47,772 bases of DNA from Sedimentisphaerales bacterium (lineage in GTDB: Bacteria > Planctomycetota > Phycisphaerae > Sedimentisphaerales > Anaerobacaceae): NCBI GenBank assembly GCA_049644065.1, contig JBARRE010000118.1, forward strand, positions 1 to 47,772, written 5' to 3'. Of this stretch, positions 16,009-23,041 are shown piece by piece; position 1 is the stretch's first letter, and each line of letters begins with the position of its first letter. The position numbers and the translations under genes were made by a program. The notes under the pieces were generated by a model. It had not been told where the DNA came from. It was given only the letters and a program-made list of their open reading frames with translations, and ran no database searches.

Positions 16009-17388
16009 CTATCTTGCTCCACTGACTATTTCATCTGCTCGGAGAAGCATTGCTTCGGTGTATTTGAAATTATGAACTCCCCAGCTTCCATCTGCTAATA
16101 CTGATTCGAGAATCGATTGGGCTTGTTCAATGCTCTGGTTTAACCGCGAGGCTGTTTGTCCGCTTGTTGTATTCCGAGCCCTGCTCTTGAGTTGATCCAG
16201 CTTGCGGCTGACTTGTTCGTGCATTGCTTTAATCTTATCCTGCCAGAAAGGTATATACTGTTGACCGGTTCCTTCCTCGTGGCACTTGTCGCAGGCATGA
16301 GGTACGGCTTTGGCAACTGTTCCGTGACTATCCAGGACGCCGGATTTTTGTGCCACCCGCTCGATATGACATCCGGTGCATTCCACGTGTGTGAGAAACA
16401 TCGGGCTGAGAACCCGATCCGTCTGCTGGGTCTGCATCGGATGCTGGGTTGAGTAGATAGTACGCTGGATCTGGTGAGTATCACTGTGACAGTTCTGACA
16501 ATCCATCATGACCGAAATGGATGCCACTTCCGTCTGGCCATGTGACACTTGTCCGTGGCACGCGAAACACTCGACCTTTTCATGATTCGTGTGGGTTTTA
16601 TGCAGTTCCACGCTGTCGGCATGCTGTTCCTTGCTGAAACTGTGGCAATTCAAGCACACGTTATCGTTTACCTTGCTTGTCTTGTGAATATCTTTTTTGT
16701 GACACGAATCTTCACAGCTTGCTTTGTAGGAAACAAACTCGGTATGGTTAATTGTTACCAGGCCTCGCTTAATGATCCTGTCGGGCACCTCGTGGCAATC
16801 TGTACAGCTCGTCTTAATCGCACTGCTGTCGGCCTCGCTGCCCTTGAGGAAGTGGCAGGTATAGCAGGCATCTTTGTTAACGGTGAAGTGCTGGTTTCCT
16901 TCGAAGTGGTTGTGGCAAGTGCCGCATGAAATTTTTATCCCATGGACGTCTTTGTCGATGTGATTTTCGTGGGTGAATTTGATGCCGGCGTAGTCGATTT
17001 CCGTTGAGACAAGCTCTTCATTGCTATGACACTCGGACCTCAGGCAGGAAGCGTCCTGAACGGTGGCATTTGGCTTTGTGCCAACCCGGCCAACTATGCA
17101 ATCGACCGCCTGGGCCAGCCCGTTAATTTTCCCTTTTACGTAACCGGTAAAGCCCGGCTGTAAATGACAGTCAAGGCAGTTGACCTTCGAGTGTTCGGAA
17201 CGTTTCCAACTGTCATAATGGTCATTCATGATGTGGCAGGAATTGCAAAAGCCCGGTTGTCCTGTAACAACAATTGCCCCTGCGGCAAAAAAGGATGCGC
17301 ATAAAACAAGAAGTAATATCTTTACTGGCCACTTCATTTGCCAGAAGATATTCCATCCGAATACAAATATCGCTTTGATATAATTCAC
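16009..17388 (-). CDS. Membrane-anchored NapC/NirT(CymA)-family multiheme cytochrome, extended (10 CxxCH + CX4CH + CX3CH); putative quinol dehydrogenase
   Basis: An N-terminal TM helix is followed by the family hallmark CNSCHIM...Y..W..S.H....C.DCH. Further motifs are CGTCH, CYTCH, CTDCH, CLNCH, CFACH, CQNCH, CTGCH and CDKCH, plus CLRSECH and CEDSCH. The C-terminal helix contains GSWGVHNF. An alternative start is M18 at 17337. Confidence 0.85.
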   Translation of the reverse strand: MNYIKAIFVFGWNIFWQMKWPVKILLLVLCASFFAAGAIVVTGQPGFCNSCHIMNDHYDSWKRSEHSKVNCLDCHLQPGFTGYVKGKINGLAQAVDCIVGRVGTKPNATVQDASCLRSECHSNEELVSTEIDYAGIKFTHENHIDKDVHGIKISCGTCHNHFEGNQHFTVNKDACYTCHFLKGSEADSSAIKTSCTDCHEVPDRIIKRGLVTINHTEFVSYKASCEDSCHKKDIHKTSKVNDNVCLNCHSFSKEQHADSVELHKTHTNHEKVECFACHGQVSHGQTEVASISVMMDCQNCHSDTHQIQRTIYSTQHPMQTQQTDRVLSPMFLTHVECTGCHIERVAQKSGVLDSHGTVAKAVPHACDKCHEEGTGQQYIPFWQDKIKAMHEQVSRKLDQLKSRARNTTSGQTASRLNQSIEQAQSILESVLADGSWGVHNFKYTEAMLLRADEIVSGAR

Positions 17389-17553: not shown

Positions 17554-18654
17554 TTAGAACTCGTCATAAAAAATATCATCCGGACGTAAGCCTTTTTCCT
17601 CAAGAACTCGGGTGACCGCTTCGATCATTAGAGGTGGGCCGCAAAGAAATGCCTGACGAGGTATGCCGTGCTCTAAATGCTTATCCGCGGCAAGATGAAT
17701 GAATCCTGTCTCTCCGTCCCATTTTTCTTCGGGCTTCAGTTGGTCGGACAGGGCATAGATTACATGGAAATTCGGATGCTTTCGCTCCAGGTCCTTGAAT
17801 TGTTCGAGGTAAAAGATATCCTCTGTCGTCCGGCAGCCGAAGAATAACCAGCACGAGCGGTTGGGCCAACGGTCGTAGAGTGTGTAGATGATATTCTTCA
17901 TAGGCGCCATCCCACAGCCTCCTCCTACACAAATAATCTCAACAGAGGGGTCCTCATTCAGATAAAAATCCCCGTACGGGCCTGTGAAAGCTACCTCATC
18001 GTTCACGTTTAAATTGTGCAGATATGTCGAGCCAATGCCACCCGGAACTAACCTGACATCAAGCTCCACGACTGTCGGTTCATAAGCCGGCGAACTAATT
18101 GAGTAGGCGCGGAAAACCGGACCGTCGGGGGATGGGGCCTGAATCTGCACATATTGGCCGGGTCGTTGAGAAATTTCCTGAGAATCATCTAATTTCAGTC
18201 TGATTTCCTTTATATCATATGTGAGCTGGCGGGTGCTTTCCACAGTAGCATTAAAGAGCTTAACATTAAGGAAATCCTCGGGAATACGAACGTAGATATC
18301 TTCCCGTATTTTAACCTGACAGGCCAGCCTGGCACCGGAACGAATTTCCTTTCGTGTTAAGTACGGCGTCTCTGTGGGAAGCAGCGGGCCTCCCCCCGAA
18401 GTCACTGTGATTTTGCAGTGTCCACAGGAACCTTTGCCGCCACAAGCGGATGGGATGAAAATCTCGTTGGCGTAAAGGCTCGAAAGCAGCGTCTGTCCGC
18501 CCTCGAGCTCAAGCGGCTTTTCGCCGGCATTGATATCGAGTTTGCAGATCCCGTAATTTATCAGGAAGTGTTCAGCAACCATCAGTCCGGCTGCGAGAAG
18601 TATTACCAGGCCGGAGAAAGAAAGTACCGAATACAAATAAATCGCAAAACCCAT
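17554..18654 (-). CDS. nqrF: Na+-translocating NADH:quinone oxidoreductase subunit F
   Basis: It has an N-terminal TM helix, a plant-type 2Fe-2S motif (CGGKGSCGHC...C) and an FNR-like FAD/NADH domain (RAYSISS, GGCGMAPM). Confidence 0.9.
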   Translation of the reverse strand: MGFAIYLYSVLSFSGLVILLAAGLMVAEHFLINYGICKLDINAGEKPLELEGGQTLLSSLYANEIFIPSACGGKGSCGHCKITVTSGGGPLLPTETPYLTRKEIRSGARLACQVKIREDIYVRIPEDFLNVKLFNATVESTRQLTYDIKEIRLKLDDSQEISQRPGQYVQIQAPSPDGPVFRAYSISSPAYEPTVVELDVRLVPGGIGSTYLHNLNVNDEVAFTGPYGDFYLNEDPSVEIICVGGGCGMAPMKNIIYTLYDRWPNRSCWLFFGCRTTEDIFYLEQFKDLERKHPNFHVIYALSDQLKPEEKWDGETGFIHLAADKHLEHGIPRQAFLCGPPLMIEAVTRVLEEKGLRPDDIFYDEF

Positions 18655-18663
18655 TGAGCACTC

Positions 18664-19254
18664 CTATTGGATCGATACCATTCCGGCAAAGCCCATAAAT
18701 GTCATGGCAAGCACGCCGGTGACGATCATTGCTATAGCTACACCCTCAAAGCATTTCGGGACATGGCTGTATCTCATTTTCTGTCTCAAACCGGCTAAAA
18801 GCACAATGGCAACAGCCCAGCCGATCCCTGCACCCAGGCCAAAGCCTATAGACTGCATAAAACTGTAGTTGCGAATGATCATGAACAGAGATGCGCCGAG
18901 AATTGCGCAGTTTACGGTTATCAAAGGTAAAAATATGCCGAGTGCAAAGTACAGCTTCGGACTGAACCGTTCGACAAACATTTCAACTAATTGTACGAAG
19001 GCGGCGATGACCGCTATGAAGACAATAAATTGCAGATGACCGAGACTCAATGGCATCAGGACAAAGTGGTAAATTACGTAATTTATAATTGTTGTCATAA
19101 TCATCACGAAAATAACGGCGGTGCCCAGTCCCAGTGATGTCTTTATCTGGCCTGAGCACGCGATAAACGAGCACATGCCGAGAAAATTCGTCAGCAGGAT
19201 ATTGTTCGTAAATATCGCCGCGATGAATATCACCCATGCCGATGTCTCACTCAT
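18664..19254 (-). CDS. nqrE: Na+-translocating NADH:quinone oxidoreductase subunit E
   Basis: This polytopic membrane protein has the conserved FLGMC..., ALGIFLPLITVNCAILG and GLG.GIGW blocks of NqrE/RnfA. Its start overlaps the nqrD stop (TAATG). Confidence 0.85.
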   Translation of the reverse strand: MSETSAWVIFIAAIFTNNILLTNFLGMCSFIACSGQIKTSLGLGTAVIFVMIMTTIINYVIYHFVLMPLSLGHLQFIVFIAVIAAFVQLVEMFVERFSPKLYFALGIFLPLITVNCAILGASLFMIIRNYSFMQSIGFGLGAGIGWAVAIVLLAGLRQKMRYSHVPKCFEGVAIAMIVTGVLAMTFMGFAGMVSIQ

Positions 19255-19919
19255 TATTTATTCTCCTCAGGCGCTGGGCCCTTGATAGCATTAAAAATTC
19301 CGATCACGATACCGAGAGCAAAAAATGCTCCGGGGGCCAGAATCATTAGCTGGTTGGGAGTATACCATTCACTGAACGCCGGAATCGTACGTCCCATGAT
19401 CTCTCCGGTACCCAGCAGTTCTCTGAAAAAGCCGATTATCGCCAGTACCACGGCGTAACCAATGCCGTTGGCCAGCCCATCTACAATGGACAGAACCGGC
19501 GGATTCTGGAGTGCGAAAGCTTCGGCCCGGCCCATCACGATACAGTTTGTGATAATCAAGCCGACATAGGGGCCGAGTTGTTTCGACATGTCCCAATAGA
19601 AGGCTTTGAGAAACTGGTCGAAAAGTATGACGAAGGTAGCGATGATAGCCACTTCCGCGATCATCCGGATTCGATGGGGGGTGCGTTTTCGCAGGAGAGA
19701 GACTATCAGGTTTGAGCCGACACAAACGAAGATAAGCGCCGCACCCATTACGAGCGAGTTCTCCAGGCGATTCGTGACCGCCAGAGCCGAACATATCCCC
19801 AGCACCTGAATCGCGAGCGGATTGTTTGCCCAGGCGCCCTCTTTCAGAGTGAGCAGCCCCTTGCCTCCACATAGTCCCTTGGGTTCACAGGCTGCACACG
19901 CTAACTGTTTATCTGCCAT
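19254..19919 (-). CDS. nqrD: Na+-translocating NADH:quinone oxidoreductase subunit D
   Basis: This polytopic membrane protein has the NPLAIQVLGICSALAVT and LIITNCIVMGRAEAFA blocks typical of NqrD/RnfE. Confidence 0.85.
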   Translation of the reverse strand: MADKQLACAACEPKGLCGGKGLLTLKEGAWANNPLAIQVLGICSALAVTNRLENSLVMGAALIFVCVGSNLIVSLLRKRTPHRIRMIAEVAIIATFVILFDQFLKAFYWDMSKQLGPYVGLIITNCIVMGRAEAFALQNPPVLSIVDGLANGIGYAVVLAIIGFFRELLGTGEIMGRTIPAFSEWYTPNQLMILAPGAFFALGIVIGIFNAIKGPAPEENK

Positions 19920-19924
19920 TATTA

Positions 19925-20530
19925 TTACTTCTCCTCAACAATGCTCTTTATGGCCTCGTTGAGCATTTCCTGCACTTTGTCACAGGTCATTGTCGCTCCA
20001 CTTATGCCGTCGACTTTGTTCGCCGCTGCCTCGCCACCGTTCTTAATGATTATTCCCGGATTTCCGGCTTCATCTCGTATCACCAAGCCCACAAACTTGT
20101 CACGAAACGATGGTTTGACGATCTCACCGCCAAGACCAGGTGTCTCTTCCTGTTCGTAAAACGTTATACCCTGAATTTTTGTTATCTTCGGGTCCATAGC
20201 CAGGAAGCCTTTGATCGGACCCCACAAACCGGGACCGGCAAAGCGCATCGCGATTGCGCCGTCATTATTAGCCGATGGAGTATAAACATAAGTCGTTATC
20301 CCTCCTCGCGTCTCCTCTTGAACATTTTTCTCGTATATCTCCACGAGTTCCTCGGAGGATGCCTCGTCCGGCATAGACACGTTTAACGCCAGCAGGATGT
20401 TTTTCACTTCCTCAGCTTCGGCGTTAGCTTTCTTATAAGGAGCCGTAAAACTCGCCGCGAATGTCAGTACCAGTGCACATACCGTACCCAGCGTCGCTGC
20501 GTAAAAGAGAGTATATATATTACCCTTCAT
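19925..20530 (-). CDS. nqrC: Na+-translocating NADH:quinone oxidoreductase subunit C
   Basis: It has a single N-terminal TM helix and a covalent-FMN motif (DGISGATMT). I chose the start at ATG 20530 (MKGNIY...), which has AGGAGG 7 nt upstream and overlaps the nqrB 3' end. The track ORF extends to 20557. Confidence 0.8.
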   Translation of the reverse strand: MKGNIYTLFYAATLGTVCALVLTFAASFTAPYKKANAEAEEVKNILLALNVSMPDEASSEELVEIYEKNVQEETRGGITTYVYTPSANNDGAIAMRFAGPGLWGPIKGFLAMDPKITKIQGITFYEQEETPGLGGEIVKPSFRDKFVGLVIRDEAGNPGIIIKNGGEAAANKVDGISGATMTCDKVQEMLNEAIKSIVEEK

Positions 20531-21623
20531 TTCTAAGCCTCCTGATACGAATCCCAACGACTATTTCATCGAGAATCGGAGCGACAATATTTCCCAGCAG
20601 GATGGCAAATGTCACCCCCTCGACGTATCCGGTGAAGTTCCGGATCAGAACAGTAGTCGAGCCGATTATGATGCCGTAGAACCATTTGCCTGTATTTGTT
20701 GTCGGGCTTGTCACCGGGTCGGTCGCCATATAAAACGCGCCGAAAAGTAATCCTCCGGCAAACAAATGCCACATCACCGGGGCGAACACGCCGGGTATTG
20801 GGTAGGCCACCGTATCGCCTACAATTAAGGCGACTGTCAGAATGACGAATGAACCGAGCATGCTCAAGACTGTTCGCCAATTGGCGACGCGGGTAAACAG
20901 CAAAAACACGCCGCCGAGTATAATCAATATGGCCGAGGTCTCCCCGGCACTTCCTGAAACACTTCCCAATAACAGATGCGCGATAGAACCCATCTCTCCC
21001 TGCTTGGCCAGGGCCAGCGGTGTGGCTCCGCTCACGGCGTCAAGTGAGGGGCTAACCCAGGTCAACAATCCGCCCACAAGCTCGTGACTGGGCTCGACCC
21101 AACTGGCTGCCATTGTCTTCGGGTAGGCGAGCGAAAGAAAGCAACGACCGACAAGTGCGGGATTGAATATGTTTCGTCCCGTTCCACCGAATAATTCCTT
21201 GCCGATGAACACGCCGAATGCGACACCCAGCGCAACCATCCAGAGAGGCAGGTTAGGTGGCAGAATCAATGGAAAGAGTATGCCCGTTACGAAGAAGCCC
21301 TCGTTAATGCCTTCCTTGCGTATCATCGCAAAAATAACCTCAACTGTCAGCCCCGCCGCATACGAGACGATGATCATGGCTAAAAACCGCAGCCCGAAAA
21401 AGTAGAAAGCCGCCAGTACACATGGAACCACAGAGATGATGACCATGGACATGACTCGCTTCAAATCAAGCGGATCACGAATGTGAGGAGCCCCTATCGT
21501 CCTTGTCGATGGCGCAAAGAAGAGATGCTCCAGCGCCCCGAACACAGGATTAAGAATCTGCAGCTTGTCGCCTTCCTCAAAAGTGGGGCGAGCTGCATCA
21601 ATAATCTTTAACAACCACTTCAC
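20520..21623 (-). CDS. nqrB: Na+-translocating NADH:quinone oxidoreductase subunit B
   Basis: This polytopic membrane protein has the FMN-threonine motif AVSGATPLA. I chose the GTG start at 21623, which overlaps the nqrA stop (GTGA) and follows GAGGAG. The longer track ORF (to 21785) would add 54 aa that overlap nqrA. Confidence 0.8.
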   Translation of the reverse strand: MKWLLKIIDAARPTFEEGDKLQILNPVFGALEHLFFAPSTRTIGAPHIRDPLDLKRVMSMVIISVVPCVLAAFYFFGLRFLAMIIVSYAAGLTVEVIFAMIRKEGINEGFFVTGILFPLILPPNLPLWMVALGVAFGVFIGKELFGGTGRNIFNPALVGRCFLSLAYPKTMAASWVEPSHELVGGLLTWVSPSLDAVSGATPLALAKQGEMGSIAHLLLGSVSGSAGETSAILIILGGVFLLFTRVANWRTVLSMLGSFVILTVALIVGDTVAYPIPGVFAPVMWHLFAGGLLFGAFYMATDPVTSPTTNTGKWFYGIIIGSTTVLIRNFTGYVEGVTFAILLGNIVAPILDEIVVGIRIRRLRNEG

Positions 21624-23041
21624 TCGGCTTTCTCCTCTGATTTTCTGCGTGCCTCTTCCTGGCGCAGTTGTTCCTGAAGTATTTCTTCCTTTTCCTTCTC
21701 GATAAGTACCTTTGCGTCGATTAGCTGTTTTCTCAGGTCTATCTTCGACGGACAGACATAAGAGCACAGCCCGCACTCCACACAAAGATCCACTCGGGCC
21801 TGCTCAGCTTCCTCAATCAGGTCCGCATACAGGTATTTGTGGATTAGATAAGGCATGATGCCCGCAGGACATACCTCTTCACAATAATTGCAGGAAATGC
21901 ATGGTCGCAGTTCTCCTCGTATGCCTGTATTTAATTGCTCCCGGAATTTTTTTCGCAGAGAACTTAAGAAACAATCGGCATAACAATGTCGATCCCATCC
22001 CGGCCTGATGAATCCGAGGAATTCCCTTTCCTCCTGTTCGCGAAGGATTGTTATTCCTCTGCATTCCGTATCCACGCCCAATGTTTCTGCCGGTAATATC
22101 TCGCCTGTTAGTATACCGCCGTTGATCACCCTCGCAGCGGGTTCAAACACATATTTATCTTTGATTTTCTGTATCGGATATCCCGGCGTAACCTTCATAT
22201 GCGTCGGCATGTTGACGCCCATTCCACCTATGGATACGATCCTGACCGTACACGGCTTTGTCAGTGTCAGGGCGCGGTCCACCGCCAGGACTCCCTCTGT
22301 ACGAACCGCCCAGACAGGACCTCCGCTCGGTTTGAGGTTCAATCTCCTGGCAAGAATTTCGAAATGATCATACGGGTACTTGAGTGGTATCTCCAGCATC
22401 TTCACTGATGCATACCCACGTATCTGATTTCGAATTAGATTCGCAAATTCAGATGAAATATTAGGCATTACCAGATAAATAGGCTGATATTCCAGCAGAG
22501 ACTGCAAATGTTCCAAACCCCTTGTGAAGTTCAAAAGTCTCTTGTGGAGCTGCACATCTCCTCTGGTAAGAAACGGTTCGAGGCTCAAAGTAGAGACAAT
22601 AACTGCCTGCGGCGTGCCGAGCGGGTCGGGTAATGCTCCCGTAAAAGCATCGTAGAAGAATTGCCAGGCACCAAGGGACAAGAGCTTATATCGCTTAATA
22701 CCGGCCGTGCCCATTTCCCGTTCTACATGCGACATTTCCTTTGCAGCAATATCGGCGCGCTCCTCAAGCTGAGCAGTGTCTTCAATTACTATATGGCCCT
22801 CAACGGCCTTTAAACGGACAGTACCAGTCCGCGGCGCCAGCAGGGGGACTGCATAGTTATCAGGATCAGTTGCCAGAACATCGCCGCCGCTCACTTTCTG
22901 ACCATTATTAACACGGACGTCAGTGAACGTGAAACGTTCGCTGCGCAAAGGCAGGTAGAGAACCTTAGGTTCCGGCATTGCCGTCACTGCGCTCGCAGGT
23001 TTTCCCTTCAGTAGTATGTTATAACCGCCTCTGAATCTCAC
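21620..23041 (-). CDS. nqrA: NqrA-like subunit carrying an RnfC-type C-terminal 2x[4Fe-4S] ferredoxin motif
   Basis: It is the first gene of the operon. It has a GTG start with GAGGGA upstream and an NqrA/RnfC-like N-terminal barrel-sandwich segment. I see no GxGGAGFP (51K-type FMN/NADH) motif. The C terminus has CISCNYCEEVCP and CVECGLCSYVCPS, followed by a K/E-rich tail. Confidence 0.75.
   Translation of the reverse strand: MRFRGGYNILLKGKPASAVTAMPEPKVLYLPLRSERFTFTDVRVNNGQKVSGGDVLATDPDNYAVPLLAPRTGTVRLKAVEGHIVIEDTAQLEERADIAAKEMSHVEREMGTAGIKRYKLLSLGAWQFFYDAFTGALPDPLGTPQAVIVSTLSLEPFLTRGDVQLHKRLLNFTRGLEHLQSLLEYQPIYLVMPNISSEFANLIRNQIRGYASVKMLEIPLKYPYDHFEILARRLNLKPSGGPVWAVRTEGVLAVDRALTLTKPCTVRIVSIGGMGVNMPTHMKVTPGYPIQKIKDKYVFEPAARVINGGILTGEILPAETLGVDTECRGITILREQEEREFLGFIRPGWDRHCYADCFLSSLRKKFREQLNTGIRGELRPCISCNYCEEVCPAGIMPYLIHKYLYADLIEEAEQARVDLCVECGLCSYVCPSKIDLRKQLIDAKVLIEKEKEEILQEQLRQEEARRKSEEKAE

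Follow-up and report, generated by a model that had tools for sequence, protein, structure and literature searches.

The window analysed here is a stretch of 47,772 nucleotides (nt) from contig JBARRE010000118.1 of a Sedimentisphaerales bacterium (Planctomycetota), and its minus strand carries six closely packed genes in the order nqrA-B-C-D-E-F. They encode a complex of the type of the Na+-translocating NADH:quinone reductase (NQR). This report concerns the first of them, the minus-strand open reading frame (ORF) 23041..21620, whose NqrA-type product of 473 amino acids (aa) ends in a ferredoxin domain. This gene, referred to below as the query, has the following features:

21620..23041, minus strand: nqrA-like gene, GTG start, 473 aa, NqrA architecture with a C-terminal 2x[4Fe-4S] ferredoxin domain
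21749..21901, minus strand: pair of CxxCxxCxxxCP motifs (residues 381-431) predicted to bind two [4Fe-4S] clusters
21908..22036, minus strand: NqrA-type membrane-anchor loop, approximately residues 336-378, EREFLGFIRPGW..., homologous to V. cholerae R330-N379
22634..22684, minus strand: vestige of the flavin mononucleotide (FMN)-phosphate loop of RnfC, residues ~120-136, LGAWQFFYDAFTGA, aligning with V. cholerae NqrA F131-K138

An NqrA with two ferredoxin motifs

An earlier note on this DNA, made from the letters alone, had reported two perfect ferredoxin motifs near the end of the first subunit. They lie exactly at 21749-21901 and both are canonical: motif 1, CISCNYCEEVCP, occupies residues 381-392 and motif 2, CVECGLCSYVCP, residues 420-431, with a spacing of 39 residues. 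Over residues 381-434 the Pfam dicluster models score above their cut-offs (Fer4_9 33.4 bits, Fer4_7 31.4 bits), and the domain aligns without a gap with the RnfC encoded elsewhere in the same genome and with A. vinelandii RnfC (8ahx_C). Among 110 aligned homologues (22-74% identity to the query), two cysteines, C391 and C430, never vary, while C381, C384, C387, P392, C420, C423 and C426 are present in at least 90% of the sequences. Since the cysteines are conserved across this whole set, the motifs are not a product of chance, and the cluster cysteines appear to be under selection.

The top-scoring NCBIfam family is NqrA (NF003761, 189.8 bits over residues 2-450), at a score far under its cut-off of 450. 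The NqrA model TIGR01936 gives 126.5 bits (cut-off 321), the RnfC model TIGR01945 gives 116 bits (cut-off 246) with a weak RnfC_N match, and the Pfam matches to NQRA_N, NQRA_2nd and NQRA_SLBB are likewise weak. Residues 41-450 of the query align collinearly with V. cholerae NqrA (7xk3_A). That chain is also the best fold match of an AlphaFold2 model built on the 110 homologues (mean predicted local distance difference test score 94.8), with template modelling (TM) scores of 0.78/0.82; RnfC chains reach 0.71-0.73. Just before the first Cys motif, the anchor loop of the query aligns with the Vibrio segment KELFGWAMPG.... In V. cholerae NqrA, the corresponding R330-N379 intertwines with the N-terminus of NqrB and dips into the membrane (PMC9325719). 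The loop is present in all NqrF-linked A subunits, and RnfC proteins are gapped there by about 31-35 residues (31 in a BLAST alignment with the RnfC of the same genome).

The opposite holds for the FMN site of RnfC. Its loop reads GMGGAGFPT in the RnfC of the same genome and LGAWQFF in the query, where LGAWQFFYDAFTGA resembles the canonical NqrA sequence GLWTAFRTRPFSK. By Pfam and by alignment, the query has neither a match to Complex1_51K (PF01512) nor a GxGGAGFP loop; the earlier note had already pointed out the absence of this loop, and we find it replaced. Collinearity with NqrA, the anchor loop, the fold match and the missing 51K domain together indicate that the protein is NqrA by architecture and not a second RnfC. 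Judged from its sequence, the A subunit is an NqrA that has kept an RnfC-type dicluster domain and lost the RnfC site for FMN and NAD(H). The wording of the earlier note, a subunit intermediate between RnfC and NqrA, suits this combination, and suits equally the grade found in the trees of the A and B subunits described below.

The nqr operon

The other genes of the operon, and the one directly after it, are:

20520..21623, minus strand: nqrB, 367 aa, GTG start, PF03116 346.6 bits
19925..20530, minus strand: nqrC, ~201 aa from an internal ATG, periplasmic FMN_bind domain, PF04205 68 bits
19254..19919, minus strand: nqrD, 221 aa, NqrD NF006777 256 bits (over its cut-off of 235)
18664..19254, minus strand: nqrE, 196 aa, nqrE TIGR01940 227.9 bits vs rnfA 217.7 bits
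17554..18654, minus strand: nqrF, 366 aa, transmembrane helix, [2Fe-2S] domain and FNR-like FAD/NADH domain, the NADH entry module
16009..17388, minus strand: NapC/NrfH-type multihaem cytochrome with 10 CxxCH motifs and Pfam and NCBIfam matches, directly downstream of the operon and outside the complex

ORFs and matches to Pfam and NCBIfam identify the last gene of the operon as a true NqrF. Besides its transmembrane helix it has the Pfam domains Fer2, FAD_binding_6 and NAD_binding_1, as the earlier note had proposed, and it scores 284 bits with the nqrF model TIGR01941 (cut-off 295). The B to E subunits belong to families shared by Rnf and Nqr, and in these the NQR models outscore the Rnf models; NqrB, for example, gives 356.8 bits with NqrB NF003756 and 254.2 bits with RnfD TIGR01946. 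NqrC reaches 131 bits with TIGR01938, short of the cut-off of 144. The flavinylation motifs that had been seen in NqrB and NqrC can be read directly in the translations (AVSGATP and GISGATM, respectively), and the conserved Cys pairs for the intramembrane [2Fe-2S] cluster are in place in NqrD (GICSAL and TNCIV) and NqrE (GMCSF and VNCAI). The start of nqrB was chosen by comparison with relatives, whose proteins begin MKWLLKII..., and the internal ATG of nqrC corresponds to the start MKGN... of relatives. The stop codon of nqrA and the start codon of nqrB overlap by 4 nt (GTGA, window positions 21620-21623; ATGA in relatives), an arrangement that points to coupled translation of the two subunits.

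The complex resembles the V. cholerae Na+-NQR (7xk3, 8a1u) in having six genes in the same order, NqrF as the point of entry, SGAT motifs in NqrB and NqrC and the Cys pairs of NqrD and NqrE, and its NqrA shares the fold and the membrane-anchor loop of the Vibrio protein. It differs from it above all in the two full [4Fe-4S] motifs, where Vibrio NqrA has a LCTFVCPGK remnant and no cofactor. In addition, NqrB (367 aa vs ~410 aa) and NqrF (366 aa vs ~408 aa) are shorter, neither apbE nor nqrM is found within the operon (in the genome search for NqrM, PF04400, the control was without a match in any genome), and the planctomycete host is of an anaerobe type and has Rnf as well. Compared with the Na+-NQR equivalogs, NqrA, NqrB, NqrC, NqrE and NqrF of the window all remain under the NCBIfam cut-offs.

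With RnfC (8ahx_C, C. tetanomorphum 7zc6_C, A. woodii 9eri_C and the RnfC of the same genome) the A subunit shares the C-terminal dicluster domain with the same motif spacing, the N-terminal barrel-sandwich and SLBB-like domains and, as expected by homology, the position beside the D/B subunit. It departs from RnfC in the absent Complex1_51K signature, in the NqrA loop of 31-35 residues, in having NqrF and not an RnfB polyferredoxin as partner, and in falling into a separate clade. The Tol2-type Rnf of Desulfobacula toluolica offers a partial parallel, as its RnfC lacks the NADH-dehydrogenase and SLBB domains and keeps the Fe-S part, NAD binding having shifted to the input subunit (PMC5109826). 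Compared by description only, the two cases are alike in an RnfC-like subunit that keeps Fe-S without an NADH domain. They differ in the input, which is an enlarged, NAD-binding RnfB (~700 aa) there and NqrF here, with no RnfB-like gene in the operon.

A complete Rnf operon in the same genome

A complete rnfCDGEAB operon is found on a separate contig of the same genome (C85:7226-13379). Its RnfC matches Complex1_51K (PF01512) with 172 bits and has the GMGGAGFP loop, and RnfB is encoded in the same operon. The earlier note had allowed that the query might group with bona fide RnfC and be served by an rnfB elsewhere in the genome; the query is excluded from the RnfC clade at 100% support, and the rnfB of this genome belongs to its own rnfCDGEAB. 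The pairing of the two systems extends to other hosts: when 80 genomes were searched for both families, a true RnfC was present in 7/7 genomes with the Fe-S-type A subunit and in 2/16 with canonical NqrA. A convergent ApbE gene follows rnfCDGEAB on C85 and a second ApbE gene lies on contig C694; none adjoins the nqr operon, in contrast to the Riflebacteria and Elusimicrobia operons described below.

Distribution and genomic contexts of Fe-S-bearing NqrA

Characterised NqrA proteins had been described in the earlier note as devoid of cofactors, and the literature agrees, up to the 2025 reviews and a 2026 primary paper. NqrA is presented as cofactor-less in PMC4014512, PMC9588780, PMC11889175, PMC12174285 and PMC9325719, and the first four of these describe it as having "lost its redox cofactors" and assign no function to it. 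No description of an Fe-S-bearing NqrA was found in the open-access literature searched, including reviews to 2025 and the 2026 primary paper; in that literature it is not the well-catalogued variant that the earlier note had envisaged as an alternative.

The two motifs are real, but they are no rarity: a large family in several phyla carries them, widely spread among uncultured anaerobes. With a word-indexed search, more than 120 clusters were obtained at >=73% identity, all of them with Fer4 and all from metagenome-assembled genomes (MAGs) of Planctomycetota, Phycisphaerae or Sedimentisphaerales; these proteins are named "4Fe-4S dicluster domain-containing protein" at NCBI and NqrA at JGI. 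An exhaustive search of 50%-identity representatives gave 3961 matches at E<=1e-3, 198 of them at E<=1e-30. Among the best 150 representatives, which extend to ~22% identity, every full-length protein has both motifs except three that have one, and GxGGAGF occurs in none. Named members come from Planctomycetota, KSB1, Lentisphaerae, Poribacteria, Riflebacteria, Elusimicrobia and Desulfobacterales, and in the ESM Atlas clusters combining NQRA_N, NQRA_2nd and Fer4 are most frequent in Thermodesulfobacteriota and Spirochaetota. The FMN loop decays in a graded fashion across the alignment; 43/95 representatives still match Complex1_51K weakly, and 55/95 match NQRA_2nd.

Within the Planctomycetota, the scores of the NqrA model TIGR01936 are bimodal over 401 genomes: 47 have a canonical NqrA (390-593 bits), and about 16, assigned by score and not each by its cysteines, fall at 84-136 bits. 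The canonical planctomycete proteins have no Cys in motif 1, and their motif 2 is either a LCxFVCPGK remnant or nothing. Two members of the Fe-S family carry additional sequence at the ferredoxin domain, namely P0160, with a 29-residue Gly/Ala/Pro-rich insert between the Cys motifs, and P0123 (570 aa), with an insert of ~70 residues ahead of motif 1. On their sequence, these inserts are lineage-specific decorations of the domain.

Genomic contexts were obtained for seven representatives:

P0196, KSB1 MAG: A-B-C-D-E-F with NqrF
P0208, Riflebacteria MAG: A-B-C-D-E-F with NqrF, plus ApbE
P0218, distant clade: A-B-C-D-E-F with NqrF, then UbiA and polyprenyl synthase
P0267, Elusimicrobia contig: A-B-C-D-E-F with NqrF, plus ApbE; A subunit without motif 1
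P0231, KSB1 contig: order rnfD-G-E-A-(164 aa)-C-nqrF
P0213: Fe-S A subunit directly upstream of an NqrB::NAD_binding_1 fusion
P0183, Poribacteria contig: A-B-C only

The earlier note had raised the question whether a Cys-bearing NqrA always occurs together with NqrF. NqrF accompanies a full subunit set in 5/7 contexts (P0231, P0196, P0218, P0208 and P0267), while P0213 has the fusion and P0183 only A-B-C. The same operon order was found in relatives; a search by exact peptide patterns yielded close relatives only. P0231 deserves separate mention, because its A/C subunit combines a Complex1_51K match of 86.6 bits, the loop GGGKGGFPT and both Fe-S motifs with the NqrA anchor loop, which is already in place. 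It seems to represent a stage still further back, in which either end of the complex may have had an NAD(H)-type module. The fusion in P0213 recalls the "NQR/RNF-like" clusters in which NqrB/RnfD is fused to an NqrF-type NAD-binding domain; in the part of that account available, these are partial, single-path systems without NqrC/D/E, defined by the NqrB::NAD-binding fusion and with no mention of the A subunit (Meheust et al. 2021, PMC8238504). P0213 thus places an Fe-S A subunit beside such a fusion, and the window encodes a full six-subunit complex.

Phylogeny of the A and B subunits

Two trees of the A subunit were computed, one with FastTree (137 rows) and one with IQ-TREE under LG+C20 with posterior mean site frequencies (PMSF) (76 rows: 11 RnfC, 54 Fe-S forms and 11 canonical NqrA). 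The canonical clade is represented by planctomycete sequences with 390-593 bits on TIGR01936; canonical NqrA from Proteobacteria, Bacteroidota, Chlorobiota and Chlamydiota and the RnfC of distant phyla are outside this sampling. RnfC forms one clade (support 100), with all NqrF-linked A subunits on the opposite side (100). The Fe-S forms constitute a paraphyletic grade between RnfC and canonical NqrA, with the 51K-like form of KSB1 at its base and the query within a supported clade of 15 rows (SH-aLRT 95). Canonical NqrA forms one clade nested within this grade (100); the sequences nearest to it are Fe-S forms, and the one-motif form of Elusimicrobia is its sister. Monophyly of the Fe-S forms was rejected in approximately unbiased (AU) tests under LG+G4 with 36 rows, being 217 log-likelihood units worse (p-AU 3.6e-10). 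When the columns of the Fe-S domain were removed, monophyly was still 193 units worse (p-AU 1.3e-6) and the topology was unchanged. By these trees, cofactor-less NqrA descends from the Fe-S grade, and the Fe-S form looks like the ancestral one.

The NqrB/RnfD tree recovers the same order with 99-100% support. Since the NqrA and NqrB trees are congruent, the operon evolved as a unit and a mosaic is ruled out. A recombinant origin was therefore rejected, and with it the "hybrid" of the earlier note, as the whole operon is of one descent. The other suggestion made there, a relic of the transition from Rnf to Nqr, stands as far as the retention of an ancestral state goes; the query itself sits on a side branch, off the direct line to canonical NqrA.

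A 2014 evolutionary paper postulated the loss of the cysteines without showing an intermediate. A 2025 review placed the origin of NQR in Bacteroidota, and in the current view RnfB was lost first, RnfC then decayed and NqrF was recruited last. The sequences presented here suggest that the steps followed another order, in which NqrF would have been recruited with the clusters still in the A subunit (and, in the KSB1 form, with a 51K-like domain as well). The FMN loop would have decayed next, and the clusters would have been lost last, only on the branch leading to the textbook enzyme.

Proposed electron path and acceptor

In Rnf, electrons pass from the flavins of RnfD through the two clusters of RnfC to FMN and on to NAD+ (PMC11889175). 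With entry at NqrF, NADH would come in at the opposite side compared with Rnf, which puts the clusters of the A subunit on the exit side, downstream of riboflavin. We propose that electrons would run from NADH through FAD and [2Fe-2S] of NqrF to the [2Fe-2S] cluster of NqrD/E, the FMN of NqrC, and the FMN and riboflavin of NqrB. From riboflavin they would, as in Rnf, pass the two [4Fe-4S] clusters into NqrA. As the FMN/NAD site is gone, this wire needs another terminus; it would end at an acceptor bound in what was once the FMN pocket, the likeliest candidate being a prenylquinone head group. In that case the enzyme would reduce quinone with NADH at a site in NqrA and pump Na+ (or H+). That the complex is an NqrF-driven pump of the NQR type whose clusters connect the riboflavin of NqrB with such a pocket is the reading we prefer, tentatively and as one whose chances fall a little short of even.

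The pocket is suggested by work on the Vibrio enzyme, in which photoreactive ubiquinone labels NqrA at L32-M39 and F131-K138 (PMC9325719). The labelled pocket lies ~20 A above the membrane and ~30 A from riboflavin, too far for electron transfer according to the authors (PMC9325719), and the quinone site of NQR was still called unresolved in 2026 (PMC12901251). In our alignment, F131-K138 coincides with the former FMN loop, which is the end point of the RnfC wire. A link to quinones is further suggested by the genes following nqrF in some relatives. Directly after nqrF, L020, L027 and L012 carry a radical S-adenosylmethionine (SAM)/SPASM gene, a MenA-like prenyltransferase and a long-chain polyprenyl synthase; counting P0218, there are four contigs in which nqrF is followed by MenA-like/UbiA and polyprenyl synthase genes. 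The cassette lies at:

L020:14426-17306
L027:14763-17411
L012:7963-10996
L084:1471-2364, considered alongside these three

The MenA-like gene of the host genome is on a different contig, and the MenA-like scores are under the equivalog cut-offs. The cassette may belong to a so far unrecognised pathway for a prenylated redox carrier, or to the scavenging of precursors.

Several points weigh against the proposed path. The alignment of the labelled segment with the FMN loop has only ~20% identity. Another structural study puts ubiquinone in NqrB beside riboflavin, according to the citing passage of PMC12901251, which would make a wire unnecessary. Neither MqnA/D nor MenB was found in the host genome (95% complete) or in five operon-carrying relatives (one of them a closed chromosome), and MenD was not found in the host genome; this makes it possible that the acceptor is scavenged, is novel or is no quinone, and it is uncertain which quinone the carriers have, if any. 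A MenD match of 58 bits (cut-off 244) and MenB matches of the relatives at <=52 bits (cut-off 343) were set aside as other enzymes and count as no evidence of a pathway. In the trees, canonical NqrA comes from Planctomycetota only, and RnfC mostly so, which means that the root and the grade rest on narrow sampling. Finally, cluster binding, redox activity and acceptor are all inferred from sequence. The compound claim, that the Fe-S NQR is ancestral to all NQR and that its clusters feed a quinone, or a quinone-like prenylated acceptor, in the former FMN pocket of NqrA, we accordingly regard as rather unlikely in its entirety.

A different view of the clusters is that they are relics: quinone would be reduced at NqrB beside riboflavin, and the clusters of NqrA would be off the pathway and serve to hold the C-terminal domain together. 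Cluster N7 of bacterial complex I is a precedent for a cluster with a purely structural role. Canonical NQR works without clusters, the fold of the domain outlasts their loss (in Vibrio the C-terminus can still be aligned collinearly and retains LCTFVCPGK), and the losses appear stepwise, with P0267 lacking motif 1 and canonical forms having 2 or 0 Cys, so that the clusters are dispensable in some lineages; the placing of ubiquinone in NqrB by the study cited above fits as well. Against this, the full set of eight Cys and two prolines is retained over ~100 50%-identity clusters from many phyla, which is strong conservation for a structural role, although still compatible with it, and by homology to Rnf the proximal cluster would lie within transfer distance of riboflavin and be reduced anyway. 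This explanation is doubtful, but has to be taken seriously. Less probable still is an exit to something other than a quinone, in which the clusters would pass electrons on to a cytoplasmic protein, soluble or docking (such as an Fe-S protein, a flavoprotein or a reductase), and the complex would be an NADH:X oxidoreductase pump. The want of a recognisable menaquinone head-group pathway in the host genome and the five relatives speaks for it, as does the company of Rnf in these anaerobe-like genomes, much more regular than with canonical NqrA, and the Tol2-type RnfC without NADH and SLBB domains has been described as "necessitating an acceptor other than NAD+" (PMC5109826). However, no conserved partner gene was found in the operons examined, MenA-like and polyprenyl synthase genes are tied to nqrF in the four contigs named above, the membrane-inserting loop is retained, and in the window a NapC/NrfH-type quinol dehydrogenase follows the operon.

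Very improbable, in our view, is a simple error of naming, whereby the query would be the RnfC of a second Rnf, or part of a recently recombined hybrid operon, mislabelled as Nqr. The 116 bits with TIGR01945, the weak RnfC_N match and the noncommittal name at NCBI could be quoted in its favour. The query lacks the FMN domain and has the loop found only in NqrA, it stands outside the fully supported RnfC clade with a congruent NqrB tree, and its operon has NqrF and no RnfB in a genome whose rnfCDGEAB is complete elsewhere.

If the Fe-S form is indeed ancestral, the Vibrio-type NQR is one derived member of a far wider family of enzymes from anaerobes. Under the path we prefer, the family also offers a handle on the question of the NQR quinone site, namely a natural version of the enzyme whose two-cluster wire should bridge the gap of ~30 A between riboflavin and the NqrA pocket. 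Should the compound claim be true, it would explain why ubiquinone probes label the distant pocket of Vibrio NqrA and would pinpoint the original acceptor site of the family; carriers without Men and Mqn pathways may then make an undescribed prenylated acceptor by means of the nqrF-linked cassette. As the proteins are named at NCBI only for their dicluster domain, metabolic reconstructions of sediment Planctomycetota and of other phyla may miss or mislabel the pump.

Downstream cytochrome and expression in relatives

The multihaem cytochrome gene is found 3' of nqrF, directly or after 1-2 genes, only in the closest relatives (L004, L006, L007 and L011, >=79% identity). No such cytochrome occurs at the same position in L013, L020, L024, L025, L027 or L012. 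The adjacency being limited to the closest relatives, the link between nqr and the cytochrome is recent and lineage-specific. Contigs from sediment metatranscriptomes (three libraries, 90-95% identity) span most of the operon (17554-23041), including part of the Fe-S region. They give a weak hint that relatives express the operon, as carry-over of DNA is possible and they say nothing on the transcription of this locus.

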